A stretch of DNA of 32,000 nucleotides. Origin: Ferroglobus placidus DSM 10642. GTDB lineage: Archaea > Halobacteriota > Archaeoglobi > Archaeoglobales > Archaeoglobaceae. How positions within the stretch are numbered: position 1 is the first letter of the stretch; each line of letters starts with the position of its first letter. A program made the position numbers and the translations under genes. A model generated the notes under the pieces. The model did not search any database. It saw only the letters and a program-made list of their open reading frames with translations, and had not been told where the DNA came from. The stretch is from contig NC_013849.1 in the NCBI RefSeq assembly GCF_000025505.1, positions 780,001 to 812,000 of the forward strand, written 5' to 3'. Below are positions 8,944-29,138 of the stretch, in pieces.

Positions 8944-9055
8944 ATTTTTTCCCAATATTTTTATTCAAGTCGTTACGTTAGAAAAGTCATCGACTCAATA
9001 ATTTTCACAACTTTACGCAAGGTTTGGAGTAAGCTGCTGATTCTAACACCGAAAA

Positions 9056-9066
9056 CTATATATTTA
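9056..9066 (+). promoter_or_regulatory. Candidate TATA box of the histone gene
   Basis: CTATATATTTA lies about 50 nt upstream of the ATG at 9113. A GGAAGGAGGTG Shine-Dalgarno sequence sits at 9095-9105. Confidence 0.4.
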
Positions 9067-9112
9067 ACCTATACCAATTTATTTTGAAAATTGAGGAAGG
9101 AGGTGTTAGAAC

Positions 9113-9322
9113 ATGGCTGAGTTGCCACTTGCACCGGTTGACAGATTGATTAGGAAGGCTGGTGCCGAGAGAGTTAGTGAAGAGGCAGTTAAAAAAATGG
9201 TCGAAGCACTGGAGGACTACTGCACCAAGATAGCGAAGAAAGCCGTTGAAATTGCCAAGCACGCTGGAAGAAAGACCGTCACAGCTGAAGACATTAAGCT
9301 TGCCGCTTCAATGGTTCAGTAA
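9113..9322 (+). CDS. Archaeal histone (HMf family)
   Basis: The 69-aa product reads [26 protein letters not shown]...[17 protein letters not shown], a canonical archaeal histone fold sequence. Confidence 0.95.
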
Positions 9323-10078
9323 TTCCTTTTTTATTAAATTTTTAATATTTTCGTAACCCTTTTTAGGCTTTAAAATTTCCACGACGTCTTCGCACCTCAA
9401 ATACGCCAGCTTTCCGGCAATTTCGGCAGCCTTTCTGTACCTTTCTCCGTCGCAGACGAAGTACTTTCCCGGGGTGACTATAACGACTTTATCCGCTTCA
9501 AGGGACTCCTCGTTGGGATAAGCGAGGTTTCCCGAGGACTCAACAACGAGAATTTCGCTTTTTCTCTTTAACTTCTTTAAAATTTCGTTCGACGCATCCC
9601 TTCCAGAAAGCAGTAGATCGTTTACACTTTCAATTTCAACCTTCGATATCTCTCTGTTTCTCAGAATTCTCTCGACTCTCTTAAGGAATGATTTTACAAA
9701 CCTGCTTAACGGCTCTACAACGTAAATGCTTTCCTCAATTCTAACAACAGCTGTCTGAAAAACCGGAGATTCCAAGCTCGTCGTATTCCAGTCCACAGCT
9801 TCTAAGTCTATGGGAAGGAGGAGGGAGAAGACGGGATTCAAAATTTCAAGTTTTTCCTCACCTTTTACAAGTTCGCTAACCCTAAGAACGTCATGACTAA
9901 CGAATTCACCTATTTCAAGAATTCTTTCAAAAGCTTTCTCATGGTAGAAAGCGTTCAGCGTTGCCAACGGCTTAGAAAACTCTACGCTAAAACCCTCTCC
10001 TCTAAAAGCTTTAACTATCTCCTCCACAGCCTTTGTCTTCCCCACGTGCTGCCCTACTCCCACAACGAGAATCAACAC
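9308..10078 (-). CDS. P-loop NTPase, BioD/CobQ-like N-terminus, function unknown
   Basis: Walker [10 protein letters not shown] lies at the N-terminus of the 256-aa product. The 3' end overlaps the convergent histone gene by 15 nt. Confidence 0.65.
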
Positions 10079-10128
10079 GAAAATCGTTAAGACAAAGTTT
10101 TTATAAAGTTTAAAGAAGTTCTTCTTCG

Positions 10129-10458
10129 ATGCTGCCGCTAAATCCGAATCAGATGAAAAAGATGATGAAGCAGATGGGCATAGAAATGGAAACGATCGAA
10201 GCTGAGGAAGTTATAATAAAAACGAAAGATGCAGACTACGTTTTCAAAAATCCGGTGGTAAATAAAATCTCGGCTAAAGGAATAGAGACGTTTCAAATTA
10301 CCGGAAGCTACGAAGTAGTTGAGAAAGTCGTGATAAATGAAGAGGATGTCAAACTTCTGATGGAGCAAGCTGGAGTTAGCGAGGAAGAGGCAAGAAAAGC
10401 TCTCGAAGAAGCTAAAGGAGATCTTGCGGAAGCTTTAATGAAGCTGCAAGGAGAATGA
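10129..10458 (+). CDS. nac: Nascent polypeptide-associated complex protein (NAC domain plus C-terminal UBA)
   Basis: The N-terminus reads MKKMMKQMGIEMETIEAEEVIIK. The C-terminal UBA-like segment is EDVKLLMEQAGVSEEEARKALEEAKGDLAEALMKL. Confidence 0.9.
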   Translation: MLPLNPNQMKKMMKQMGIEMETIEAEEVIIKTKDADYVFKNPVVNKISAKGIETFQITGSYEVVEKVVINEEDVKLLMEQAGVSEEEARKALEEAKGDLAEALMKLQGE

Positions 10459-11195
10459 AACCGCCGGTCGTTCTGATTAGAGGGAGAAATGCTTTCTTAG
10501 TTGAGAAGTTCGAAGGGGAGCTTCACACACACAAAGGGATAATAAAGCTTGAAGAACTTAAAAACAAGAAGTTTGGAGATAAAGTAAAGACCCACCTCGG
10601 CTACGAATTCAGCATAATTCCTTTCAACGCTTCCAAGTTTTTCCAGCTCTTTAAAAAAGGTCCGACGCCGGTTATGCCGAAAGACATTGGAGCCGTAATA
10701 GCTTACACCGGTTTACAACCAGATTCCCTTATTTTTGACGCTGGAACCGGAAGTGGTGTCGTTGCAGCGTATCTTGCTTACTTCAACAAGTACGGAGAAG
10801 TCGTGACTGTGGAAAAGAGAGAGGACTTTGCAAAAATAGCGAGGGAGAACTTCAAAAAAGCTGGATTGAAGAACGTTCATCAGATTATCGGAGATGCGAT
10901 TTTTGTCGCTGACGGCTTCAAAAAAGAGTTCGATCTCGTTTTCCTCGACATGAAAGACGACGTGGAGTTTCTGCCAAAAGCTTGGGAGATCTTAAAAGAG
11001 GCTGGATACTGCGTGGTTTACAACCCCTACATAGAACAAACGAAAGCCGTTTACGAGAAAATGAAGGAGATAGGCTTCAAAGAAATCGAAGCCTTCGAGC
11101 TCGTAAAGATAAACTTGGAGTTCAAAAGAGTTGGTACGAGACCTTTTACCGAAATCTTCCACACAGGCTATCTGGTTTTCGGGAGAAAGGTCTGA
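10455..11195 (+). CDS. trmI: tRNA (adenine57/58-N1)-methyltransferase
   Basis: The protein matches my recollection of Pyrococcus TrmI along its whole length. DAGTGSGVVAAYLA is the SAM motif and the C-terminus reads RP..EIFHTGYLVFGRKV. There is an ATGA overlap with nac. Confidence 0.85.
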   Translation: MKPPVVLIRGRNAFLVEKFEGELHTHKGIIKLEELKNKKFGDKVKTHLGYEFSIIPFNASKFFQLFKKGPTPVMPKDIGAVIAYTGLQPDSLIFDAGTGSGVVAAYLAYFNKYGEVVTVEKREDFAKIARENFKKAGLKNVHQIIGDAIFVADGFKKEFDLVFLDMKDDVEFLPKAWEILKEAGYCVVYNPYIEQTKAVYEKMKEIGFKEIEAFELVKINLEFKRVGTRPFTEIFHTGYLVFGRKV

Positions 11196-11196
11196 G

Positions 11197-11913
11197 CTAA
11201 CCCATCCTTCCTTTTATCCCGAGTTCTTTTAGAACATCCCTAATCTTCGGAACTATTTTGTCGTACTTCTTTTTCAGCTCCTTAGTTCTCTTCTTCTTTT
11301 CCCTCTCGAATTCCGCTGCTCTTTCCGCAGAAAGGGTGCAAAAAAGCTCGAGGAATTCCCAAACCTTGTCCATGGATTTTCTGGTCTTCCTGTTCTTCTT
11401 TAACCGCTTTGTAACTTTTTTTAGAAGCAAAAGCTCGTCTCCGGATCTATCGAGAATTATCGAAGCTAAGACGTTTTCCCACCCAAGGTTTAGCGTGGCT
11501 AAAACGAATTCTCTAAAAAGATCTACGACCTCGTCCTTCTTTTCGTTGCCCGTCTTCTCGAAAGAGAATTCCTCAAGTTTTTCGTAAGCTTCTCTGCTCA
11601 ACGCATCGTAAGATTTCTCCACAGACACGCCGTAATCAACATAAGCTTCGCAGAGCTCCGTTAGCTTCTCAACTGTAAATTCCTCCAAAGAGTCGAGCAT
11701 TCTGTGGAGAAGGTAATAACATAACCCCTCCACGTTCCAATTTTCCACGAGTCTGTCAAACAGAGCCTCGGATAGTTTTTCGGAATCTGCAATTCTGTCG
11801 ACTTCTCGATTATAAAAATTGCAAACAATTTCCCCCATTCTGCTGTGGACGTCGAGAGAAGGTGACATGCGGAAAGAAAAGAAAAGGAGGATAAAAATCT
11901 TTTGAACTTTCAC
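11197..11913 (-). CDS. Hypothetical protein (start uncertain; the GTG at 11913 overlaps the upstream stop, and internal ATGs are possible)
   Basis: The 238-aa ORF is helical with a K/R-rich C-terminus. I recognise no motif. Confidence 0.55.
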   Translation of the reverse strand: MKVQKIFILLFFSFRMSPSLDVHSRMGEIVCNFYNREVDRIADSEKLSEALFDRLVENWNVEGLCYYLLHRMLDSLEEFTVEKLTELCEAYVDYGVSVEKSYDALSREAYEKLEEFSFEKTGNEKKDEVVDLFREFVLATLNLGWENVLASIILDRSGDELLLLKKVTKRLKKNRKTRKSMDKVWEFLELFCTLSAERAAEFEREKKKRTKELKKKYDKIVPKIRDVLKELGIKGRMG

Positions 11914-12698
11914 CTTTCCAAACCTTCGAGGAACTCAAGAACGAACCTGTTGAACTCTTCGGGATTTTCCATTTTTGCCAGATGGGCGGCATTTTTCACG
12001 ACCTTTAGTGTTGAATTTGGAATGAGCTTTGCTATCTGCTCTCCCAGCTCTGGAGGGGTTGTAATATCGAACTCAGCCACAATCACAAGCGTCGGCACCG
12101 CTATCTTCGGAAGCAAATCTTCGTAGTTAATCTTGCCGATTTCTATCGTTACTTTCGTGTAGTACTCTTTATCGTTCTTTCTTATAATCGTCTTGACCAA
12201 GTCGATCAGTTCTCTCCTCTTTTGATGAAAGGAGATGTTGGCGATAAATTCGGCAATCTCTTCCATACTTCCTCTCTCCAAAAGCTTAAGCCTCTCTTCG
12301 AATAAAGGCTTAGCCTCTTCCGGAAGCTTGTGGAGGGTATTGGCAAGCACTAACGACTTTACCCTTTCAGGATAGTTTTTGTAGAACTCGAAGCAAACAA
12401 CTCCTCCCATGGACAAACCGAGCAAATGTGCCGCATCTATCTTCAAAAAATCCATGAGGTTTTTTACATCCTCGGCAAAGTCTCGAACGGAAATTTTTTC
12501 GGGAATATCGGACATTCCGAAACCCCTCAAGTCGAGGCTAACAACTCTATATTTTCTCGCAAACTCCGAATACTGAAAAGTCCACCCCTCCAAACTCTCT
12601 CCAAGTCCGTGAATAAGTATTAGCGGCTCTCCTTTACCGACTTCAAAATACCTCAGCTTCAAGCCGTTGGAATCGAAAAAGCCAAACCTGAGCTCCAT
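11910..12698 (-). CDS. Alpha/beta-fold hydrolase
   Basis: HGLGES is an oxyanion-type motif, GLSMGG is the nucleophile elbow, and a late His occurs in NAAHLAKMENPEEF. Confidence 0.85.
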   Translation of the reverse strand: MELRFGFFDSNGLKLRYFEVGKGEPLILIHGLGESLEGWTFQYSEFARKYRVVSLDLRGFGMSDIPEKISVRDFAEDVKNLMDFLKIDAAHLLGLSMGGVVCFEFYKNYPERVKSLVLANTLHKLPEEAKPLFEERLKLLERGSMEEIAEFIANISFHQKRRELIDLVKTIIRKNDKEYYTKVTIEIGKINYEDLLPKIAVPTLVIVAEFDITTPPELGEQIAKLIPNSTLKVVKNAAHLAKMENPEEFNRFVLEFLEGLER

Positions 12699-12762
12699 AA
12701 TGTCTATATGATTTCAAAGCGTAAAAACTCTTTCAATTTTCTTCAACGAAAATGACAGTTCT

Positions 12763-13303
12763 TTACCGAATTCTAAACTCCTTCCAATACCAGACATAAG
12801 TTCTTTTTAGCTTCCTCCTCGTCCTGAAAGTCGTAATGTGATAAGTTTTTTACATCATCTCCTTCAACGAGGGTCCCATAAGGATCTTCTTTACAGCTGT
12901 CTGCATTTCCAAGCGATCGGATTGCTGAGAGAAGAACTTACGCATATGCCTGAGTCTAAGCTTCGAATTCAACCTGCTGAAATGATGTTGAATTGATTTT
13001 CCGAGAAAAGACATTTCGGTTTCGTGCTGAGATACTCGATTAAAGCTTCTTTAGCCTCCTCAGAGAAAAATGTAAATCGATCATCATAATTCTCAGTCAG
13101 CTGGAATGAGAACGGTGCAGTTGTTACAATCAATGTTTTCAAGCTTAAGACGATAAACCTCTTCAGAATGCATTCTTGACGTTGCCGCCATCAGAATTTC
13201 CGCTTTCATCTTCAGATTGCATGGATGACGAATGGATTTAACTTCCTTGAGCAACGCTCTCACATCATTCACATTAATAACCATACGGGAGGGGATCTTG
13301 AGT
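12763..13303 (-). pseudogene. Tyrosine recombinase (integrase) pseudogene, catalytic domain broken by at least 2 frameshifts and 1 in-frame stop
   Basis: My reverse translation gives four pieces:
- MVINVNDVRALLKEV...ILMAATSRMHSEEVYRLKLENIDCNNCTVLI, which carries the Arg-I box (track ORF 13093..13284).
- After a frameshift, ENYDDRFTFFSEEAKEALIEYLSTKP.
- After another frameshift, LRLRHMRKFFSQQSDRLEMQTAVKKILMGPSLKEMM, a box II LRH.
- After a TAA stop, KTYHIT, which carries the candidate catalytic Tyr. Confidence 0.6.
13284..13303. repeat. att-like copy of tRNA-Leu internal sequence (TACGGGAGGGGATCTTGAGT)
   Basis: This is a perfect 20/20 direct repeat of 14619-14638. The flanks are unrelated on both sides. 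Confidence 0.8.
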
Positions 13304-13600
13304 TTGAGGGTTCAGAATTCAAAATAGAGTATTCTCCTCTGAGAAATGCCTTCAAAAAGTGGTTATTTAAATATTCGAGAGGCTTTCATTGAATTGTAGA
13401 CTAATTTGATGTCTCTAATCTTAGCCTCTCTTACAAATCCCTGATCTTCCCTCGATTGATAGAAGACAAATTTCATTCCAAGCTTTAACTCCTTGAAAAC
13501 TGTAGCAGACTTGATAAATACATCTTTATCTTTTTTAAGAATCTATCCATAGAACTACTTAGGTATCGGGAAAGCTATGCCAACGATCTTCGCCGTTACC

Positions 13601-14092
13601 TCACAGACTTTCTATAACTTTTCTAGCTTTTTCATATACATTAACGCTCAACCACATCACGTTTGCGAGCTTTTCCAAATCTCCTAAACCTTCTTCCTTT
13701 GAAATCAATTCTAACCTAACAGCCTTGATGATTATACCTACTGAACCTACAACTTCCAAACCTAAGCCTAAAGCGAATTTTCTTGCGTCTGAGTCGTCTA
13801 ATAACACCGGAACGTTTAACGATTTGGCGAGTAAGATCGCACAAGCTTCGCCGTGATGTATTCCCACTTTCTTAGCCAGCTCATTGGCATCTTTCGGATC
13901 GTCAACGATTTTAATCCAATCCGTTGATTCGATCAGGAAAGCGTCAGGATTTCCCTTCTCTTTCCCTCTATCGATTACCTCCACTTTGACGGTTTTCGGA
14001 ACGATTATTTCTCCAAATATTTCCTTGAGCAGGTCTATCCTTCCGATTTTTGCCAAGTGGATTAACGGACCAGCGTTGCTGACAGCGGTCAT
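13601..14092 (-). CDS. PIN-domain toxin (COG2405/DUF3368-like)
   Basis: The sequence VSNAGPLIHLAKIGRIDLLKEIFGEIIVPKTVKVEV...HHGEACAILLAKSLNVPVLLDDSDARKFALGLGLEVVGSVGIII matches the family pattern. I prefer the ATG at 14092, which forms an ATGA overlap with the antitoxin stop; the track ORF extends to 14104. Confidence 0.8.
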   Translation of the reverse strand: MTAVSNAGPLIHLAKIGRIDLLKEIFGEIIVPKTVKVEVIDRGKEKGNPDAFLIESTDWIKIVDDPKDANELAKKVGIHHGEACAILLAKSLNVPVLLDDSDARKFALGLGLEVVGSVGIIIKAVRLELISKEEGLGDLEKLANVMWLSVNVYEKARKVIESL

Positions 14093-14394
14093 TTCATCGC
14101 CCACTTTATGTCAGCCTCAAGATCTTCTAAATCATATTTGAACGGGATGTTTCTCTTTCTCAACTCTTCTAAAGCCTCCCTGTACGTTATTCCCGCTATT
14201 TCAGCAGCTTTCCATAACGAAACCTTGCCATCTCGGTATAGCTCTAAAGCTCTCTTAATCTTATACTCTCTGAGCGATTCCGTTATAAGTTTGCGAATAA
14301 GCGTTCCTTTGTCTATTCCTTCCTCTTTACTCAATCTCTCAATCTCTTCGATAATCTCCTTGGGTAGTCTAACGGACGTAGTTACCATTTTCAC
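14089..14394 (-). CDS. Antitoxin: ribbon-helix-helix N-terminus fused to a UPF0175 (COG2886) domain
   Basis: VRLPKEIIEEIERLSKEEGIDKGTLIRKLI is RHH-like. ALELYRDGKVSLWKAAEIAGITYREALEELRKRNIP is UPF0175-like. A TATA-like TTTTAAGTATAC lies about 30 nt upstream. Confidence 0.8.
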   Translation of the reverse strand: MKMVTTSVRLPKEIIEEIERLSKEEGIDKGTLIRKLITESLREYKIKRALELYRDGKVSLWKAAEIAGITYREALEELRKRNIPFKYDLEDLEADIKWAMK

Positions 14395-14586
14395 AATTAC
14401 ATCTTAATGCGAAGTATACTTAAAACTTTGCGAAAGGTTTAGCGAGGAAGTTTAGAAGAATTTCTCGGCACGTCGAATGGTTGAAAGCTTTTAATCTGAA
14501 CTCGAGTCTGAGATCGAGAATTCGTTAAAGGAAGTGATCGAAAAATTAACTACGTTTTAAAGAAACTTAGAGAAATTCTGAAACAA

Positions 14587-14671
14587 TGCGGGGGGTGGGA
14601 TTTGAACCCACGAACCCCTACGGGAGGGGATCTTGAGTCCCCCGCCTTTGGCCTGGCTCGGCAACCCCCGC
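14587..14671 (-). tRNA. tRNA-Leu (anticodon CAA), class II with long variable arm, no intron, no encoded CCA
   Basis: The reverse complement folds by hand as follows: acceptor GCGGGGG/CCCCCGC; anticodon stem GGGGA/TCCCC; loop CTCAAGA; variable arm TCCCGTAGGGGTTC; T arm GTGGG-TTCAAAT-CCCAC; discriminator A. Confidence 0.9.
14619..14638. repeat. att core inside tRNA-Leu (anticodon loop to variable arm)
   Basis: Identical 20-mer to 13284-13303. Confidence 0.8.
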
Positions 14672-14724
14672 TGCTTCAAATTTAAAGGCTTCGATTTGCT
14701 TAAAGTATTTTGCGGTTATGCATA

Positions 14725-14829
14725 TTAGAATCCGTACTTAAATATCAGAATTGCAAAGACGATAACGACTAAAAGCATAGAAATCAAGAAGAGAATGTCG
14801 AATTCGTCTAAATCAAACTTTTTATCCAT
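14725..14829 (-). CDS. Possible 34-aa single-pass membrane miniprotein (MDKKFDLDEFDILFLISMLLVVIVFAILIFKYGF)
   Basis: The ORF is below the track's size cutoff and I found it by reverse translation. It has a charged N-terminus followed by a 20-residue hydrophobic helix. TTTTTTAAAT lies about 28 nt upstream of the ATG, which fits a leaderless transcript. Confidence 0.3.
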   Translation of the reverse strand: MDKKFDLDEFDILFLISMLLVVIVFAILIFKYGF

Positions 14830-14861
14830 GAAAGTACATCAGCAAAAGAATTTAAAAAATT

Positions 14862-16232
14862 TTACGAAAGAATATCTTTCACCGGCTTCTCATACCTTTC
14901 AAAATCCGCAAGATACTGCAAAAATATCAGTGCCGCCGATGGACTACCTCCCCCGTGCACGGCTCCAAAAACGTGAGATGAGGAAAGCCAGAAGCTAACG
15001 AACTTCGCTATCTTCAACCTTTCCTCCGGAGAGAATTTTTCCGAAGCTTTCAAAATCGTTCTCAGCTTCTCGCCGATTCCCTCAGCTTTAAGATCCTCTT
15101 CAGAAGGTGAAGTGGCTGGTAGAGCTCCCGAGATGTCCGTTAAAATTCCTATCGCTTTCATAAAACTATCAACACCAGCTACTTTAGCTGAATTAGCCAT
15201 AATTGCGTTGGGCACGTAAGCCTCTCCAACCTTTTCTCCTTTGTAAGCCGCTCCGATAGAAATGGCAAAAGCCGCTTCGCTCAACCCTACGATCTCAGCA
15301 ACCTTCTGGCGTAAAACGCTAACGTTCTCCAAGCCGTTAGCCTTGAGCATTAGACTTGCTGCCCCAGCCATCGAAGCCAAAAATTCAGCCTTACACGCTG
15401 CTCCGACGCATCTGTGAGAGTTCGCAAAATTCTGAAGAACCGAAGCCGTAGCTCTCAGGTCTTTGTAGATGAAAACGCGCTCCCAAGGGACAAACACTTC
15501 ATCCATTATTACGACGCAGGTTATCCTGTCTCCATACTTAGGATTGCCAGCATCAGCACCTTCCCTCTGCAAAGCCTGATAGCCGGTATTCTGCACGACG
15601 TAACTAACTCCCTTGTCTTCAGGGGTTAAAGCGAAAGCCACAGCGAACTCCTCTTCTCCTTTTTTAAACGTTTGCCCGGGAAGAACGAAGTTTATTTCAC
15701 TCGCAAAAGCTCCGCTTTGATGAATTTTCGCCCCGCTAACAACGATACCGTCCCTCTGCTCATCAACAACCCTCACGTACTGTTCTTTCTGCTCGGAAGG
15801 TCTTTTACTCCTGTCTCCTTTCGAATCGGTTAGCGAAGCTGTACAAGCGAGATCGTTTTTCTGAACTTCTTTTAAGAATTCGAACAGCTTTTTCCTTCCT
15901 TTGTCATTTAGCCCAGCCGCTAAAGAATTTATGGCGTCGCAACCAGTACATCTGTAATTGCAGGTCGCAAGCCTGTGGCTAAGCTCCTTCTGAAACTCGT
16001 ACCTGAAAACGAGTTGCTCAAAAGATTTTATGACAGCATTGAGGACATTCACCTTTCCGTTAATTAAATCTGAATGCACTCCTCCCATTTCTTTAGCCAA
16101 ATCGTAAGTGTAGGCTATCGCATTTACAACAGGTTTTACGTTGGGATGGTCATAGCCTACCTTCTCTCCCTTCACGTAAATCTCCTTTTTGTGCTCTTTC
16201 AGCCTCTCTCTGTATTCCTCACCGCTTATCAT
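14862..16232 (-). CDS. 4-hydroxybutyryl-CoA dehydratase / vinylacetyl-CoA isomerase family ([4Fe-4S] plus FAD) enzyme
   Basis: The protein resembles my recollection of Clostridium AbfD along its whole length. The cluster ligands are conserved: CNYRCTG (C-x3-C) and SHRCVGAAC (H-x6-C). I prefer the start MISGEEYRERL at 16232, which has TATTTAT about 26 nt upstream; the track ORF extends to 16295. Confidence 0.8.
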   Translation of the reverse strand: MISGEEYRERLKEHKKEIYVKGEKVGYDHPNVKPVVNAIAYTYDLAKEMGGVHSDLINGKVNVLNAVIKSFEQLVFRYEFQKELSHRLATCNYRCTGCDAINSLAAGLNDKGRKKLFEFLKEVQKNDLACTASLTDSKGDRSKRPSEQKEQYVRVVDEQRDGIVVSGAKIHQSGAFASEINFVLPGQTFKKGEEEFAVAFALTPEDKGVSYVVQNTGYQALQREGADAGNPKYGDRITCVVIMDEVFVPWERVFIYKDLRATASVLQNFANSHRCVGAACKAEFLASMAGAASLMLKANGLENVSVLRQKVAEIVGLSEAAFAISIGAAYKGEKVGEAYVPNAIMANSAKVAGVDSFMKAIGILTDISGALPATSPSEEDLKAEGIGEKLRTILKASEKFSPEERLKIAKFVSFWLSSSHVFGAVHGGGSPSAALIFLQYLADFERYEKPVKDILS

Positions 16233-23226: not shown

Positions 23227-24597
23227 TTAGTAAATCTTAACGGTGTGCTCTACCACGTGAAGATATGTTATAATCGGGGGCATCTGGTCAACTAAAAGCC
23301 TGTAAGTTGATTGAGCGGTATTGAATCCATCAGCTCTGCCTTCGTAGATAACTATATCCGGCGACGTTTGGGCAGCAAGAACTCTAAAGTAATGCTCGGT
23401 AACGTTTTTTAAAGTAAGTACTTTACCTTCGTTGAAGTCTCCGAGCTGGTCGTTGACGAAATCCGTTTCGTTAATGTCGTTTCCCCAAGTCCATGTGACA
23501 GATGAGAAAGCGTTAGTCGGCCATCTAACTCCTCCCACGTTTATAGCTGCATCAGGTTTCTTGTACTCCATCCATATTGACTCGTTGAGAAAATCGAGGG
23601 AATAAAAACCGTCGTCATTCCACTTTAATGTTGTATTAGACTCCCACGATTCGTATTTCGATTCGTTTCCATAGTATACTCGAAGAATGAATTCGTTAGC
23701 ACTACCTTGCCTTTTTTGCATATATATTACAAGGGCTGGATCGGTATCGGTGTACCAGACGAGTTTGTAGTTTGACCGCAACTCATACAGATTTAACACG
23801 AATTCTTTTATCGGCTCTTCGTCGCTGTAATTCAACCTCGTTATTCTTATAGGCATCTCATACGTTTTAAAAACCGGAGCGGATTTTACTGCAAGCTCGA
23901 ACGTCACAGTGTTGTTTTCCGCGTCGATACTTCTAACTTCCGCATCGCTCCTCTCTTCAAAATAATTCATCCACCCGTCCCAGAACTCGCTCGTCACCTT
24001 AACTATAAGATAATCGCACTCCAATGGATTTACGAATCTCGGGTCTTTGGAAGGATCGGGATAAATTTTAGTTATTTTTACTCTCTTAACGCTTAAATCA
24101 ACCACACCGCTCCCGGCAATTGAAGCGGAAGAATCAATTTTTATTATCGGGAACGTCAGCGTATCTATCTTGTAATGAAACTCAGGTGGCGAGACCATTA
24201 CAGTTTTTCCACTCCTTTTCAGCCAGACACCGCCTCCTTCGTAACCTATAACCACATCTCCAATTCTGAAAACAACCCTTCCTATTGATGAGCTGTAAAT
24301 CACCTTCTCCTCCGTTCCGTTAAAAACTCCAATTATCGTTATGTTGTTTCCACCGCTTTCTATACTCAAAGAACCTCCGAGAAGGTTAAAAGATATGCTC
24401 TGGCTTGGAGAATCTCCGAGAGAAGCTCTACTTGCAACGTAATCGAGGAGAGACATCTGAACTTCAGCTATTCTAATTTTAGATTCGAAAATCTGATCGG
24501 AAATGTAAGGGTAAGAGATAGTAAAGACAGTCACAGCTACCAGCGTCACTATTCCGAACATCAACAACCACCCAACCACTTCCGACACAGCCCTCAT
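23227..24597 (-). CDS. Class III signal peptide (type IV pilin-like) protein, 456 aa, large beta-rich extracellular domain
   Basis: The N-terminus MRA|VSEVVGWLLMFGIVTLVAVTVFTI has a basic residue, a small residue and then a ~22-residue hydrophobic helix. At least 9 N-x-S/T sequons are present. It shares the motif DTLTFPIIKIDSSASIAGSG with the upstream 224-aa protein. Confidence 0.8.
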   Translation of the reverse strand: MRAVSEVVGWLLMFGIVTLVAVTVFTISYPYISDQIFESKIRIAEVQMSLLDYVASRASLGDSPSQSISFNLLGGSLSIESGGNNITIIGVFNGTEEKVIYSSSIGRVVFRIGDVVIGYEGGGVWLKRSGKTVMVSPPEFHYKIDTLTFPIIKIDSSASIAGSGVVDLSVKRVKITKIYPDPSKDPRFVNPLECDYLIVKVTSEFWDGWMNYFEERSDAEVRSIDAENNTVTFELAVKSAPVFKTYEMPIRITRLNYSDEEPIKEFVLNLYELRSNYKLVWYTDTDPALVIYMQKRQGSANEFILRVYYGNESKYESWESNTTLKWNDDGFYSLDFLNESIWMEYKKPDAAINVGGVRWPTNAFSSVTWTWGNDINETDFVNDQLGDFNEGKVLTLKNVTEHYFRVLAAQTSPDIVIYEGRADGFNTAQSTYRLLVDQMPPIITYLHVVEHTVKIY

Positions 24598-24599
24598 AG

Positions 24600-25274
24600 C
24601 TAACCACTCAGTATTTCGAGAGAGACCAGAGAATACTTCACGAGAATTTTCGATTCATTCAAAAATATTCTGTCGCCTACTCTCGTGTAATTAACTCCTA
24701 CTTCTTTTAATATGCTTTCCCACGCATCCGCGTTTACGCTTTCTATTGTAACGTTGTTCGCCTCGAAAACACCCCCTCCGAGGTTTTCGAATCCAATTAT
24801 CACCTTCGCTTTTCCTCCAATGCTTTCAAAGCTCGAAAACTCGATAACTGGGAAAAGAACTGTGTCTCCAGCTTTTAAAACTCTCGGAGCGTAATCCAAG
24901 ACGAATCTGTCTCCGTAATAAGTAAAGACGGCATCGTTTTCGAGAACAATTCTAACGTCGTCTTTTTCATACACGAAGCTGTAAAGAGGAATTGTTGTAT
25001 TTCTCAGCGATACGTTCCCGCTTCTTTGCAAGTAAAAGGTTCCTTCGTATATTGTTATTTGCGTGTTTCTCGATGGAAAGCTATCGAAAACAACTTTATC
25101 GAGATTCGACTTCAAAAGAACGTAAGAAGACCTCATTTCGCTCATGTGATTGGAACTAATTATTGACTCGCTCAAAACTTTCGATCCGGAGAGAATCATC
25201 CCGGTAGCTATCGCAACTATCGTTAATATTATCGCTATGCCAACTTCGGTTGAAAGAGCTTTATCTCTCCTCAA
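24600..25274 (-). CDS. Class III signal peptide (type IV pilin-like) protein, 224 aa
   Basis: The N-terminus reads MRRDKA|LSTEVGIAIILTIVAIATGMIL. The core motif DTVLFPVIEFSSFESIGG is paralogous to that of the 456-aa protein. Confidence 0.8.
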   Translation of the reverse strand: MRRDKALSTEVGIAIILTIVAIATGMILSGSKVLSESIISSNHMSEMRSSYVLLKSNLDKVVFDSFPSRNTQITIYEGTFYLQRSGNVSLRNTTIPLYSFVYEKDDVRIVLENDAVFTYYGDRFVLDYAPRVLKAGDTVLFPVIEFSSFESIGGKAKVIIGFENLGGGVFEANNVTIESVNADAWESILKEVGVNYTRVGDRIFLNESKILVKYSLVSLEILSG

Positions 25275-25707
25275 GATTTGTCACCTCGATTTTACCCCTT
25301 TCCGGATGGTAAACCAGATAAGCATTCACGCTAAGCGCTTCGCTCTCTTCAACCGGAATTTTGCTGCTGATAGGAACAAAAACCGAATACTTTCCTTCCA
25401 ACTCTACAGATCCCGGTTTTATTCTGATAATGTATGTCTCTCCCCCGATCTTCTCCGGAACCTCCAGTTTTTTTACCATCGTAAGGTTTCCAGGGTAAAT
25501 CGTCAGATAGTACATCGCGTGCAGGTCGTTCACTATTTTAGCGGCAACGTTCTGCATCGTGGCTTTAACAGCCGTCTCCTCCACTGACTTGAAAACTGAG
25601 TTGTAGTTTAAGAGAACCATCATGACGAGTAACGACAAAATTGAGAGCAGAAATAACGCCTCGAGAGTTTCCGACACTCCTCTAATCGAATTTAAATTTC
25701 TTCTCAA
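25261..25707 (-). CDS. Class III signal peptide (type IV pilin-like) protein, 148 aa
   Basis: The N-terminus reads MRRNLNSIRG|VSETLEALFLLSILSLLVMMVLL. The gene overlaps both neighbours. Confidence 0.8.
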   Translation of the reverse strand: MRRNLNSIRGVSETLEALFLLSILSLLVMMVLLNYNSVFKSVEETAVKATMQNVAAKIVNDLHAMYYLTIYPGNLTMVKKLEVPEKIGGETYIIRIKPGSVELEGKYSVFVPISSKIPVEESEALSVNAYLVYHPERGKIEVTNLEER

Positions 25708-28069
25708 AGTACTGGACCCTCCCGCCTTTTTCTACCTTAACCTTAACGTAGTACTCCTTGTTTTGCTTAAACTTCCAAGCAGGTGGCTTTAAAGAGCTTC
25801 CAACATCTGTACCTTCAGTTATAATTAAATCCGCGCCGCCATTTGTTTTAACTATCGAAAACTCGAATTTTCCGTCAGAGTCGGTTTTACCTTTTATCCC
25901 GGAGTAAACGACTTTTCCTTCGTTGTCAGTGATGTTCACCTCCACGGAAGCATTAGAAAGCGGGATCTCGATTAGTTTGTTCTCCTGATAGCTCTCCCAG
26001 AAACGCATCTTCACCTTAACGTAATTATCACCAGTGTCTACTTCTATCTTTCCCTCCCACTCCGCACCTTCTCCCGGCGTGCTTACAACGTTTTGAAACG
26101 TTACCGTCACGACACTTTCAGCCGTTTCGTTACCCCTCCTTCCGACAGCTTTGAGAGTGTGAGAGCCGTCCGAGAAAGCGGTCGTGTTCAAAGTTATTTC
26201 CCAGTAGCCGGTAGTTGCGTTAAACGTAAATTCTCCGACGTAAGCTGAGTCGACGTAGAAACTAACGCTTGAGGCGTTGGAGGAAACTTGAATGGTTTCG
26301 TTTCCACTCAAAATAGCGCCGTTAGTTGGAGAGACAAATTCGATGTAAAGCTGAGAGCTGCCAATCGTGTAGAATTCCGGAGGAGTGTAGTTGTACATGG
26401 CTTTTTTCAAAGTGTACTTCAAATTTTTAACGAATTCCGAGGAACCGTCGTTATATTTAATCGTCATATCGAGAGTTAGAGTGTATTCCGGAATTATTTT
26501 TGCGGCTGTAGCGAGCATAAAAGCGTCGAAAACCAGCATGATTCTCTCCGGTGTATAGCGGTTGACTGCTTCAGAATAACTCTGGTTGTGCCCTCCCATG
26601 TAGATTAGATGACCCTTTTCAAAGGGTGCGTAAGCGAGTATTATCGCATCACTTAAAGCGGTTGAGTTTATCAATGGAACGGTCTCAGGGTTATGTGCAG
26701 TAAGAAGCTTGAATCCTGGCGTGTGACCCCCTCTTGGAGCTACAAAACCATCTTGAGTGTAAGTCTGCGATATAAATAGGGTTGCGTTGTTGAAAAAGAT
26801 TGTGTCGAGAATTTTCCCCTCATTACTTTTAACTACATCCTTCTCATTCTTTGATAGTGGTTTGACGCCAACGAAACCGTACCAAGGGTGTAGATTCCCA
26901 TCTACCTTCTCGATCGTCGCATCCACGCTTTCAACACCGTAGCATTCCACGTGGTAAACTCCTCCGTTTTCGACCCACTTGAGTATCTTCCAAGCTGCAG
27001 TGTCTGTTAAATTTTTAGACGGATCGTAAGCTTCACTTATATCCGTGTGAGGTGTGAAAAGAAGATCTATGTTGTCCAAAGCTCCTCTTTCTATCTCCGT
27101 CGTATTTAATAGTGTGAACTCGCGATTCGTCAAACCAGCAGAATAAAAGTAGTTTTCCAAAATTTCGATGTTCGTCTGATCCTCAGGATACAACCCGATT
27201 CTCGGAGCTCCTATTATGTAAGCGTTCCACTCGTAAGTGAAACCTTCTTCTAACTCGTAAACGTCCAAGCCCAAATTTCTGGCTTCCTCTAAAATCATTT
27301 GCTTCAACGTGTTGTTTAAATCTTCGGCTTTAACAACAAAAGGTCCTCCCTTCAACTCCAGAAACTTTACCTCTCCGCTTACCAAAGTTCCGTTCTTACC
27401 GTCGACAACCTTTCTCGCTTTAACTGTAACGCTATAAGGTATTCCGTACGGGTCGTTGATATCGTCTCTATCTTTCCCTCTCGGATCTTCGAGAACTCTG
27501 TAAGTTGGAATCAAGTAATTGTCGAGAGCTGTGGCATTTTCATCTCTGTCGTTGAGAATTCTGTAAACAAGCCCGAAAACTCTCGCAGCCATCCAGTCGT
27601 TGTCTGAAGAAGAATCGTTCAAAAACCACTGGTTATCATCTACTGGAATTACCAGACTACCTGCTTTGTACGTGACGTTCTTTACCATGTAAACATTACT
27701 TCCCCTCGTGCTGATGTTGTAAGTTCTCTCAATCTTGGTCGATGAGAAGTTTATTTCAACATCCAAAGCCACCCCGTAATCAGCGTAAACTTTCTCAAGA
27801 AGATTCGTTAGATTCGTCAGGTGGTACTTCAAAACCTTATTAGCCTCGTTTAAATCGAGATTTTTTCGTTCGACGTAATCTAAAATTTTCAACGCGTTTT
27901 GCTCGTAGAGGTTTACAACGTCCCCGAACCTCAAAGTCTGCTGCGGTTTTTCTACTGCTGGATAGTTCAGACTCAAAAGAATGTTGTTAGCCAGTACAAC
28001 TATTATCGCCAAGCCAACAGCCATTATGAAAGCTGCAAGCAGCATTATCTGGGCTTTTACATCTTCCAT
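25682..28069 (-). CDS. Giant class III signal peptide protein (795 aa), putative pilus-associated adhesin with C-terminal Ig-like and prealbumin-like beta-sandwich domains
   Basis: The N-terminus reads MEDVKA|QIMLLAAFIMAVGLAIIVVLA. I counted at least 21 N-x-S/T sequons. The C-terminal region contains an Ig-like segment (SGNETIQVSSNASSVSFYVDSAYVGEFTFNATTGYWEITLNTTAFSDGSHTLKAVG) and a TDSDGKFEF-type beta-sandwich. Confidence 0.85.
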   Translation of the reverse strand: MEDVKAQIMLLAAFIMAVGLAIIVVLANNILLSLNYPAVEKPQQTLRFGDVVNLYEQNALKILDYVERKNLDLNEANKVLKYHLTNLTNLLEKVYADYGVALDVEINFSSTKIERTYNISTRGSNVYMVKNVTYKAGSLVIPVDDNQWFLNDSSSDNDWMAARVFGLVYRILNDRDENATALDNYLIPTYRVLEDPRGKDRDDINDPYGIPYSVTVKARKVVDGKNGTLVSGEVKFLELKGGPFVVKAEDLNNTLKQMILEEARNLGLDVYELEEGFTYEWNAYIIGAPRIGLYPEDQTNIEILENYFYSAGLTNREFTLLNTTEIERGALDNIDLLFTPHTDISEAYDPSKNLTDTAAWKILKWVENGGVYHVECYGVESVDATIEKVDGNLHPWYGFVGVKPLSKNEKDVVKSNEGKILDTIFFNNATLFISQTYTQDGFVAPRGGHTPGFKLLTAHNPETVPLINSTALSDAIILAYAPFEKGHLIYMGGHNQSYSEAVNRYTPERIMLVFDAFMLATAAKIIPEYTLTLDMTIKYNDGSSEFVKNLKYTLKKAMYNYTPPEFYTIGSSQLYIEFVSPTNGAILSGNETIQVSSNASSVSFYVDSAYVGEFTFNATTGYWEITLNTTAFSDGSHTLKAVGRRGNETAESVVTVTFQNVVSTPGEGAEWEGKIEVDTGDNYVKVKMRFWESYQENKLIEIPLSNASVEVNITDNEGKVVYSGIKGKTDSDGKFEFSIVKTNGGADLIITEGTDVGSSLKPPAWKFKQNKEYYVKVKVEKGGRVQYFEKKFKFD

Positions 28070-28632
28070 ATTGTCAGTCTCACCTCCAAAACGTTGTAAA
28101 GCTCGGAGGTGTTGCCGTCAACGTTGAAGGTTAGAGCTTTAATTCCCTGATTTGAACCGTCGGAATCGTAGATCGTCAAAACTTTCGAAACCGTCACAGC
28201 GTTATCGGAGGGATAGCCGTTCCAGACGAAAGGAATTGTAACAAAATCTATTGTTCCGTTAGCTGCGTCGAATTTGAAGTATCCTATCTCTATGTTGTAC
28301 GCTATTCCCTCTTTTTCGAATGTCTGATTGAGTATTGCTTTTAACCTTTCAGAGCCGGGATAGCTTTCAACGCCCCCGTACATAGTTTCTCCATCCCAGA
28401 AGAGCAAAGCCTCCTTTAGTGGAGAATACCTTTCTGCAAGAGATTCATACGTTATGGCGTTGATTACGTCCACCCCGTACTTTTCCAAGGCGTTTTCAAC
28501 TTGGATGTTAGCTGCTGAGGAGGTAAGAGGAGTGAGAGGGACGGCAAAGACAATTAGAAGGATGACTAATGTTAAAATTACCAGAGACATCATCGCTTCG
28601 AAAGTGAAGGTTTGAGCCCTTAAGTTCACCAA
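28057..28632 (-). CDS. Class III signal peptide (type IV pilin-like) protein, 191 aa, Q at +1
   Basis: The N-terminus reads MVNLRA|QTFTFEAMMSLVILTLVILLIVFAV. Confidence 0.8.
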   Translation of the reverse strand: MVNLRAQTFTFEAMMSLVILTLVILLIVFAVPLTPLTSSAANIQVENALEKYGVDVINAITYESLAERYSPLKEALLFWDGETMYGGVESYPGSERLKAILNQTFEKEGIAYNIEIGYFKFDAANGTIDFVTIPFVWNGYPSDNAVTVSKVLTIYDSDGSNQGIKALTFNVDGNTSELYNVLEVRLTIWKM

Positions 28633-29054
28633 ACCGCCACCTCCAGAAAGTATCTTTCGGATGTCTGATAAGTGGAAATCACCCTTCTCGTAAATCCCAC
28701 GTCAACATTCTCAGGAATTTTTTCGCCGAAACTAATAATCGTGTTTCCGCTCATATCTTTTAGAGTCACGTTCACTTTATATCTGCCTCCGGTTAACTCG
28801 GAGAGGTCTGCGTAACTTAAATACTGGACGAGCTTCGTTAGATTCACCGCTCCGAAAGCTTTCACGGCACTTTCTTCTGTGAAGTTAAGTATTAAGTACT
28901 CGGAAATCGATTCAGCCAAGTACTGAACGTCGAGCCTCTCTTTTGACAGAGGAGCAACTATGTTCATCGAAAGGTAAAAAACTATATAAACGACTCCCAA
29001 GAATATCAACACTCCACCGATGTAATCGATGCTGAGTTGAGCCCTCGAATCCAC
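28626..29054 (-). CDS. Class III signal peptide (type IV pilin-like) protein, 142 aa, Q at +1 (first gene of the operon, GTG start)
   Basis: The N-terminus reads MDSRA|QLSIDYIGGVLIFLGVVYIVFYL. Confidence 0.8.
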   Translation of the reverse strand: MDSRAQLSIDYIGGVLIFLGVVYIVFYLSMNIVAPLSKERLDVQYLAESISEYLILNFTEESAVKAFGAVNLTKLVQYLSYADLSELTGGRYKVNVTLKDMSGNTIISFGEKIPENVDVGFTRRVISTYQTSERYFLEVAVW

Positions 29055-29070
29055 GTTAATAGCCTCTGCG

Positions 29071-29093
29071 AAGATAATATTTAACGTTATCTT
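29071..29093. promoter_or_regulatory. Palindrome AAGATAA-N9-TTATCTT in the divergent argC / pilin-operon promoter region
   Basis: The perfect 7-bp arms lie between the GTG at 29054 (-) and the ATG at 29139 (+). The arms are AT-rich, so they could equally be two back-to-back TATA boxes. Confidence 0.3.
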
Positions 29094-29138
29094 AAATTTT
29101 TGTATTCACAGATAGAAAACAGAAGAGGGTGGTGTAAG

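Follow-up and report, generated by a model that had tools for sequence, protein, structure and literature searches.

A conserved, previously catalogued pilin cassette in Ferroglobus placidus that probably belongs to a PilB4-type pilus-like machinery

Introduction

Two types of clade-2 type IV pilus (T4P)-like systems have been distinguished in archaea, one "typified by the PilB4 locus" and one that is based on PilA, for which the PilB3 locus of Haloferax volcanii is the example (Makarova, Koonin & Albers 2016, PMC4858521). The PilB4-type system, whose type locus is pilB4-pilC4 in the HVO_1160 region of H. volcanii (Fig. 4B of Makarova et al. 2016, PMC4858521; "System 2" of Sivabalasarma & Albers 2026), has its own set of pilins, with arCOG03926 as the predicted major pilin. 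arCOG02911 has been proposed as a minor pilin common to both types. Modules of an ATPase and a TadC platform protein often serve pilin sets that are encoded in trans, and the published definition allows for this (Makarova et al. 2016, PMC4858521). Here we analyze a 32,000-nt stretch of the genome of Ferroglobus placidus DSM 10642 (NC_013849.1, positions 780,001 to 812,000; hereafter the window), which contains six consecutive minus-strand genes for prepilin-like proteins, here called genes A to F (Table 1). An earlier note on this DNA had considered the operon the window's strongest candidate for a novel system, one that might form an unrecognised surface structure. We conclude that it is a real, conserved pilin cassette that had already been catalogued in 2016, and not a new system. 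Table S4 of Makarova et al. (2016, PMC4858521) lists F. placidus 803227..809054, the same six genes, as clade-2 T4P components, with two arCOG02911 proteins labelled "predicted pilin", arCOG03926 labelled "Pilin, FlaG/FlaF/PilA family", and arCOG07777, 04652 and 06117. The families are also in Pfam. As a discovery the operon therefore carries little weight, since the genes, the families and the T4P assignment were published in that survey.

Two experimentally better known archaeal pili are also relevant. The PilA/PilB3-C3 pili of H. volcanii use a clade-2 ATPase and have pilins encoded in trans to pilB-pilC, as the F. placidus operon does, and the two have in common processing by PibD (predicted for the cassette) and the arCOG02911 minor-pilin family. 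PibD is a broad-substrate peptidase in Halobacteria (Makarova et al. 2016, PMC4858521). In contrast to the cassette, however, the PilA system has small major pilins (arCOG02416, Pilin_N/DUF1628) and no conserved A-B-C-D cassette, and its role in adhesion has been shown experimentally. The Epd pili of Methanococcus maripaludis are encoded by a multi-gene operon of class III signal peptide proteins with Gln at +1, as in genes A to C. Unlike the cassette, the Epd system (clade 1) has an ATPase of another clade, a split TadC and a dedicated peptidase, EppA, with nine transmembrane (TM) segments. The two share no sequence family, and none of the six F. placidus proteins has a Class_IIIsignal or Epd-type Pfam match at E<=1.

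Bacteria provide a more distant comparison. The gsp operon of the type II secretion system (T2SS) has the order gspE-F-G-H-I-J-K, and the com operon runs from comGA to comGG. By functional analogy, gspG-K and comGC-GG resemble the archaeal cassette in that an ATPase, a platform protein and five different pilin-like proteins are encoded in a fixed order, each pilin-like protein with a charged leader, a small residue in front of the cleavage site and a hydrophobic helix. In addition, an invariant acidic residue at +5 of the gene A family recalls Glu5 of bacterial pilins. Unlike bacteria with a T2SS, archaea lack an outer membrane and a secretin, and the cassette proteins have no detectable homology to bacterial pseudopilins or ComG proteins, and no match to the N-methylation motif; the model of the gene B product has no Foldseek match to solved pilins or pseudopilins.

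Results and Discussion

The operon encodes the pilin families of the PilB4-type system

We consider it highly probable that the cassette is the complete pilin set of a euryarchaeal clade-2 ("system 2") T4P-like machinery of the PilB4 type, located apart from its motor in the genome. It contains the same five families as the PilB4-type set, arCOG06117, 04652, 07777/06552, 03926 and 02911, which correspond to DUF7287, 7288, 7261, 7266 and 7289. Gene order and class III motifs are shared as well, and the published list of that system includes these very genes of F. placidus. There are also differences from haloarchaeal PilB4-type loci. The ATPase/TadC module is not adjacent in F. placidus, the gene C product has 795 aa with immunoglobulin (Ig)-like domains rather than about 320 aa, and the sixth haloarchaeal gene is on the opposite strand and encodes a DUF7305 protein in place of DUF7308.

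The earlier note had suggested hidden Markov model searches with all six proteins. These returned DUF7287, DUF7288, DUF7266, DUF7289 (twice) and DUF7308 above the Pfam cut-offs. Gene A matches DUF7287 (54 bits against a cut-off of 27; arCOG06117), and gene B matches DUF7288 (133.7 bits; arCOG04652), a family for which 579 representative clusters (E<=1e-3) were found among 1.84 billion library proteins. The match of gene C (arCOG07777) is to Big_7 (34.3 bits); its orthologues carry PF23922 (DUF7261), and it clusters with haloarchaeal DUF7261 proteins. Gene D matches DUF7266 (29.8 bits against a cut-off of 27.6; arCOG03926); a homologue search with this protein returned two proteins, and its UniRef name is "Class III signal peptide". 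Genes E and F both belong to arCOG02911, the predicted minor pilin, and match DUF7289 (53.5 and 70.3 bits, respectively), with an additional DUF7308 match in gene F (33.8 bits). The two are paralogous, as had been proposed for these 224-aa and 456-aa proteins: BLASTP aligns them at 25% identity over 167 aa (E 5e-4), and the motif DT[VL]L[FT]FP[VI]I lies inside the alignment.

Class III signal peptides

Each of the six products begins with a short charged leader and a [KR][GA] pair, followed by a single hydrophobic segment. With a slash at the predicted cleavage site, the N-termini are MDSRA/QLSIDY, MVNLRA/QTFTFE and MEDVKA/QIMLL for genes A to C and MRRNLNSIRG/VSETLE, MRRDKA/LSTEVG and MRA/VSEVVG for genes D to F. 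The window has 49 six-frame open reading frames (ORFs) of 100 aa or more. We searched these for a [KR][GA] pair among residues 1 to 22 with a strongly hydrophobic stretch of 17 residues after it, and six were positive, exactly genes A to F. The motif is conserved in orthologues of all six proteins in Archaeoglobi, Methanosarcinales and Halobacteria. Because it is kept in orthologues from three archaeal classes, we do not regard it as a product of chance.

The conserved residues differ by family. Across the three classes, family A has [RK][GA]/Q.S.D, in which the residue at +5 (Asp in F. placidus, after Gln at +1) is invariantly acidic, family B has [RK][GA]/Q..T.E, family C has [RK][GA]/Q[LIV][LMI]L, and family E/F has [RK][GA]/[VALQ]S[EDT]..G. 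Among 16 homologues of gene B, Q7, T10 and E12 are invariant. Family D has R[GA]/V[ST], and the Methanosarcinales D proteins lack K/R at -2. From these sequences we classify the six products as type IV prepilin-like proteins with an archaeal class III signal peptide and predicted cleavage, the architecture that the earlier note had assigned to them.

It is very unlikely that the six N-termini are instead uncleaved signal-anchors of single-pass surface proteins (N-in/C-out) that form no filament and use no ATPase. A hydrophobic N-terminal segment alone is no proof of class III processing, cleavage has never been shown for these families, and no ATPase adjoins the cassette in F. placidus, Archaeoglobus fulgidus or Methanosarcinales. 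A plain anchor, however, needs neither the [KR][GA] pair nor the family-specific residues from +1 to +6 that are conserved in three classes. The Pfam family Pilin_N (PF07790) matches gene F at 19.8 bits, under the cut-off of 25.2, and an ANME-2 orthologue of F at 29.4 bits, above it; genes A to E have no Pilin_N match and match their own pilin-set DUF families instead. FlaFind flags most of the six genes "yes" in Table S4 of Makarova et al. (2016, PMC4858521). Lastly, the tight operonic linkage to pilB-pilC in haloarchaea and the linkage in two Archaeoglobus species (both described below) also speak against plain anchors.

The earlier note had described two flavours of cleavage site mixed in one operon and had likened Gln at +1 of genes A to C to the EppA-dependent Epd pilins. 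The split between the two sets of motifs is real, but it reflects family signatures that are equally present in Halobacteria. Gln at +1 of A to C is likewise conserved in Halobacteria and Methanosarcinales. We reject the link to EppA, a peptidase limited to organisms with a clade-1 system; none is listed for F. placidus (row "0 5 1 0 2" of Table S3; Makarova et al. 2016, PMC4858521), and its six proteins have no Epd-type family match. We also reject an identity as archaellins, since none of the six matches PF01917 (Flagellin_arch-type).

Public gene models cut the signal peptide of Ferp_0923 and, in some callers, also that of Ferp_0921. The GenBank version of Ferp_0923 (138 aa) starts at Val +1 of the predicted cleavage site and so has no signal peptide, and an automatic gene caller shortened D to 120 aa and F to 444 aa. 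The longer ORFs are supported because orthologues keep R[GA] upstream; in the Archaeoglobi orthologues of gene D it precedes the annotated start.

The six proteins are also rich in N-X-S/T sequons, with 2.15 per 100 aa compared to 0.36 in 21 other proteins of the window (Poisson p 4e-19). This six-fold enrichment fits N-glycosylated extracellular proteins.

Gene order and linkage to the motor in related loci

We used a DUF7288 alignment for a degenerate-pattern scan that covered the genomes of 185,579 species. It yielded 33 loci, in which ORFs were called, clustered and mapped. The five families have the fixed order A-B-C-D-E/F in loci of Archaeoglobi, Methanosarcinales (ANME-2 and Methanoperedens types) and Halobacteria, and the matching Pfam families were found in one ANME-2 locus and one Halorubrum locus. 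In haloarchaea the cassette is accompanied by a protein of about 1000-1200 aa with T2SSE and PilB3_N/PilB3_C domains and by a T2SSF protein of about 680 aa. By tblastn, gene A immediately follows pilB-pilC in 20 of 22 haloarchaeal loci; in Haloarcula, pilB-pilC is 5 kb away at one locus and absent within 10 kb at two. On plasmid pHME505 of Haloferax mediterranei, a "type II secretion system F family protein" precedes five "hypothetical proteins" and then a Pilin_N protein.

RefSeq still names haloarchaeal cassette orthologues "hypothetical protein", for example at 324209-327441 of pHME505 (locus L038). Annotation thus lags the 2016 classification and the Pfam DUF families.

Linkage is more variable outside the halophiles. 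Table S4 of Makarova et al. (2016, PMC4858521) shows the cassette of Archaeoglobus veneficus followed on the same strand by FlaI (GI 327400022) and TadC, that of Archaeoglobus profundus convergent with TadC-FlaI (284161835) and an inactivated KaiC, and that of A. fulgidus alone between the genes for TFE-alpha and rpl7Ae. By tblastn we found no ATPase or platform gene in the available flanks of six Archaeoglobi loci (the window, L003, L005-L007 and L012) and eight Methanosarcinales-type loci. Searching with protein C brought up two more Archaeoglobi contexts, L041 (see below) and a metagenome-assembled genome (MAG; L039/L040) in which the cassette likewise has no ATPase or platform gene within 10 kb. 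The cassette of this MAG (8993-14881) occupies the same slot as that of A. veneficus (eIF-2beta, Uri endonuclease ... Nob1, phosphoribosyltransferase), but in the MAG it is inverted and lacks the FlaI-TadC pair present in A. veneficus. Comparison of the two looks like a snapshot of a cassette parting from its motor.

Because linkage and neighbours vary among the Archaeoglobi loci, we conclude that the cassette moves as a unit and has been separated repeatedly from the ATPase/TadC module. The earlier note had held that its proposal would fall if the six families always sat beside a known ATPase/platform locus, which would make the operon a displaced piece of a described system. Linkage is frequent but not universal, and the outcome is close to such a displaced piece. 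Owing to this separation of cassette and motor, the Archaeoglobi are well suited to studying how a pilin set selects its motor in trans.

That the operon builds a new, unrecognised surface structure independent of known T4P machinery is, in our judgment, extremely improbable. Such an idea could draw on the lack of a linked ATPase/TadC in the window and 13 other non-halophile loci, on the absence of a relative of solved structure (when B, C and F were compared with PDB chains by sequence and by profile, only chance Fab/Ig matches resulted, E>0.04) and on the RefSeq name of the haloarchaeal orthologues. The published place of the operon in a clade-2 T4P system (PMC4858521) speaks against it. So do the physical linkage to PilB/PilC in many genomes, including most haloarchaea, and to FlaI/TadC in A. 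veneficus and A. profundus, which also counters the novelty that had been proposed. Furthermore, a single slot (Uri ... Nob1) that has FlaI-TadC in A. veneficus and lacks it in the MAG points to one system whose parts have become separated.

In Methanosarcinales-type loci, which lack pilB/pilC, the conserved, divergently oriented neighbours beside gene A are possible dedicated regulators. In the ANME-2 loci L008-L010 this neighbour is a MinD/ParA-type ATPase (about 1476-2288 in L008), and in the Methanoperedens-type loci (L027, 6631-9375; L011; L013-L015) there are a KaiC-like DUF7125 protein, a tetratricopeptide repeat (TPR) protein and a small membrane-anchored protein. MinD/ParA and KaiC-like proteins are regulator classes that have been named for clade-2 systems (Makarova et al. 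2016, PMC4858521).

Two of the loci have other neighbours. In L003 (1-9426; GCA_054014375.1) a type I restriction-modification system, a ParE toxin and a D5_N/DUF5906 primase-helicase are encoded immediately upstream of the cassette. Because such neighbours are typical of an integrated mobile element, this cassette may be at an insertion hot spot or may travel with mobile elements. In L041 (8987-22445), another Archaeoglobi contig, a complete archaellum operon (FlaC, FlaD/E, two FlaF/G-type proteins, FlaH, FlaI, FlaJ and EarA) is convergent with the cassette, only 1.6 kb away, a proximity that may be a coincidence or may reflect functional coupling.

Candidate motors elsewhere in the genome

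The window itself encodes no assembly machinery, as had been noted earlier. A Pfam scan of 20 further ORFs found no T2SSE/FlaI ATPase, T2SSF/TadC platform protein or A24 peptidase, and tblastn with the haloarchaeal PilB core and PilC found no match anywhere in it. The rest of the genome does encode such proteins. According to the supplementary tables of Makarova et al. (2016, PMC4858521), from which we took the inventory, F. placidus has one FlaK/PulO-type peptidase with five transmembrane segments (5-TM; arCOG02298; NC_013849 46118-46825), five clade-2 FlaI ATPases (at 219571, 494244, 689506, 1224366 and 1322517), four of them with an adjoining TadC, and two FlhG/MinD genes. In addition there are stand-alone PilA-family genes at 396953, 475522 and 1341217 and an archaellum operon at 1.247-1.254 Mb. 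This inventory supports the alternative, also raised in the earlier note, that the operon depends on machinery encoded elsewhere.

We infer that the best candidate motor is the pair 288931899/288931900 at 1.32 Mb, because it is orthologous to the cassette-linked pair of A. veneficus and falls in the sister group of the haloarchaeal PilB4 clade. In the published ATPase tree (PMC4858521), the cassette-linked A. veneficus ATPase (327400022) is sister to F. placidus 288931899, and this Archaeoglobi group is sister to the clade with H. volcanii PilB4 (GI 292655315). The cassette-linked A. profundus ATPase (284161835) groups with F. placidus 288930649 and 288931167 in the same tree, and an alternative motor could be 288930649/650 at 0.22 Mb, the orthologue of the linked A. 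profundus pair. The Archaeoglobi candidates, at about 510-520 aa, differ from the haloarchaeal ATPase of about 1000-1200 aa, which has long N- and C-terminal extensions.

Architecture of the subunits

The AlphaFold model of gene B (pLDDT 77, pTM 0.67) starts with a long, kinked helix (residues 5-60) at the N-terminus and also contains two short helices and an antiparallel sheet of four strands. As modelled, this is the general layout of a pilin.

Gene C is larger and composite, with a DUF7261-type N-terminus, a conserved central domain (about 100-546) and tandem Ig-like domains (about 575-795) that include Big_7. Residues 1-546 are homologous to the whole of the 553-587-aa C proteins of Methanosarcinales, and the Ig tail is an addition of the Archaeoglobaceae. 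In the model (mean pLDDT 67), an N-terminal helix and a helical hairpin precede a central domain that is poorly predicted, whereas the Ig-like domains at the C-terminus are confident. In Foldseek searches of the PDB it matched only generic tandem-Ig proteins (S-layer, Bap; TM about 0.1), and the low-confidence central domain had no match. The protein contains 21 N-X-S/T sequons and is a candidate adhesin or tip subunit.

The Ig ectodomain is not tied to one subunit. In Ferroglobus-type Archaeoglobaceae Big_7 is on C, whereas ANME-2, A. fulgidus and A. veneficus have it on D; neither of these subunits has a large Ig ectodomain in A. profundus or haloarchaea. The D protein has 597 aa in ANME-2 (L008 5459-7252), 959 aa in A. 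fulgidus and 790 aa in A. veneficus, and in the two Archaeoglobus species the gene at position 3 is small while D is large.

Genes B and F each match a PHROG family of unknown function (phrog_31921, E 2e-17, and phrog_29908, E 2e-32, respectively). We found no viral relative of either gene in IMG/VR or, by tblastn, among 50,697 phage records, and the related PHROG members are probably host genes in predicted haloarchaeal proviruses.

How the cassette might work

We propose that the precursors of genes A to F would insert into the membrane, where the 5-TM PibD/FlaK-type peptidase would cut off the charged leader. The mature subunits would then be extracted and polymerised, via their hydrophobic N-terminal helices, by one of the genome's four distant FlaI-TadC pairs. 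The product might be an N-glycosylated surface filament, a heteromeric tip complex, or both, in which the 795-aa Ig-domain protein of gene C would be the adhesive or recognition subunit.

Several observations weigh against assigning the cassette to a PilB4-type machinery. The partner ATPase is ambiguous, with the A. veneficus and A. profundus cassettes linked to ATPases of different subclades. The match of gene C to DUF7261 is below the Pfam cut-off (17.7 bits; cut-off 27). Foldseek searches with the gene B model against the PDB and BFVD found no significant relative and no solved pilin or pseudopilin (we took the best match, ribosomal protein uS3 at E 0.048, to be chance). Family D (arCOG03926), at 590-960 aa in Methanosarcinales, A. 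fulgidus and A. veneficus, is awkward as a universal major pilin. In addition, we found no report of a filament, phenotype or structure for PilB4-type loci in any archaeon, and the 2026 survey calls the role of system-2 loci other than PilB3 unclear. pilB4-pilC4 is transcribed in H. volcanii and Haloferax gibbonsii, and the PilB4 protein was detected only in glycerol minimal medium. No papers turned up in literature searches under DUF7287, 7288, 7289, 7266 and 7261 or Ferp_0921 to Ferp_0926.

In some lineages family D is too large to be a conventional small major pilin. Its size, and the shift of the Ig module between C and D, are awkward for the published structural model and favor a tip or adhesin complex. 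It is possible, although on balance somewhat unlikely, that the five families do not build a filament of their own but form a minor-pilin priming or tip complex of fixed stoichiometry. It would start and cap a filament whose major pilin comes from another locus. Bacterial complexes of parallel function are GspH-I-J-K, FimU-PilVWX and ComGD-GG. Every family is single-copy, apart from the E/F duplication, and the order is strict in three classes, which fits a fixed stoichiometry better than a homopolymer. An Ig ectodomain that shifts from C in F. placidus to D in ANME-2, A. fulgidus and A. veneficus would be expected of a tip adhesin. The haloarchaeal order of ATPase, platform and five pilins also parallels the gsp and comG orders given above. 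The stand-alone PilA-family genes (arCOG02416) could supply the filament, and arCOG02911 has already been proposed as the minor pilin of both clade-2 types (PMC4858521). However, Makarova et al. (2016, PMC4858521) argue that the PilB4-type system is independent of PilA and has its own major pilin, arCOG03926, and the PilA pili of H. volcanii require PilB3-C3, not PilB4-C4. Nor do the subunits resemble bacterial minor pilins; the NCBIfam matches of gene D are all sub-threshold (ComGE, 17.8 bits against 49; ComGG, 13.3 bits against 40), and Foldseek with the gene B model returned none.

A related, more doubtful idea is that the cassette, instead of an ordinary adhesive pilus, is an archaeal counterpart of the bacterial T2SS/Com pseudopilus, a short, heteromeric, piston- or tip-like structure with one polymerising and four capping subunits. 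We regard this as unlikely. If it were true, the cassette could take part in PilB/PilC-driven protein secretion, DNA uptake or contact-dependent recognition, and the movable Ig ectodomain would be a specificity module. Attachment to mineral surfaces would also be possible in the Fe(III)-respiring Archaeoglobi. We favor the assignment of the cassette to a PilB4-type machinery with its motor in trans.

Locus layout and surroundings

The ORF call reproduced exactly the six minus-strand ORFs and the five junctions that had been reported earlier (Table 1). In the order A to F the genes overlap by 7, 13, 26 and 14 nt, and E and F are separated by 2 nt. Gene B is 99% identical to Ferp_0925, and gene D matches Ferp_0923. 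For each gene compared, the position in the window plus 780000 gives the position in NC_013849.

Table 1. The six genes of the pilin cassette and the putative promoter region (positions in the window)
Feature	Position	Strand	Size	Locus tag	Remarks
Gene A	28626-29054	minus	142 aa	Ferp_0926	ORF call
Gene B	28057-28632	minus	191 aa from TTG start, 190 aa as annotated	Ferp_0925	
Gene C	25682-28069	minus	795 aa	Ferp_0924	ORF call
Gene D	25261-25707	minus	148 aa from TTG start	Ferp_0923	
Gene E	24600-25274	minus	224 aa	Ferp_0922	ORF call
Gene F	23227-24597	minus	456 aa	Ferp_0921	ORF call
Putative operon promoter region	29055-29138		84 bp		divergent, between gene A and argC; read by eye

The region upstream of gene A is the putative promoter of the six-gene operon. 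Read by eye, it contains the A/T-rich, TATA-like boxes AAAATTTAAG and TTAAATAT, and an AGAGG Shine-Dalgarno-like element is 7 nt 5' of the GTG start of gene A.

The operon lies between argC and the genes for a riboflavin kinase regulator and RibB, the housekeeping flanks described in the earlier note. The Pfam scan of the further ORFs found housekeeping functions only; matches in the window include pyruvate:ferredoxin oxidoreductase, NAD kinase, shikimate dehydrogenase, a proteasome subunit, FttA, MobB, HemD, L16, RibB, riboflavin kinase, ArgC and CdhC.

Elsewhere in the window, a UPF0175/ribbon-helix-helix protein (14089-14394) and a PIN-like protein (13601-14104) form a toxin-antitoxin-like pair beside tRNA-Leu(CAA) (14587-14671). 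The adjacent 0.9 kb or so (12700-13600) contain only short ORFs that have no Pfam match, and this region may be a decayed insertion. An integrase remnant suspected near the tRNA gene (12.7-13.4 kb) was unsupported, the short ORFs there being without a Pfam match. Lastly, the ordinary housekeeping genes of the window include those for an archaeal histone (9113-9322; 69 aa, CBFD_NFYB_HMF) and a NAC-domain protein (10129-10458; 109 aa).

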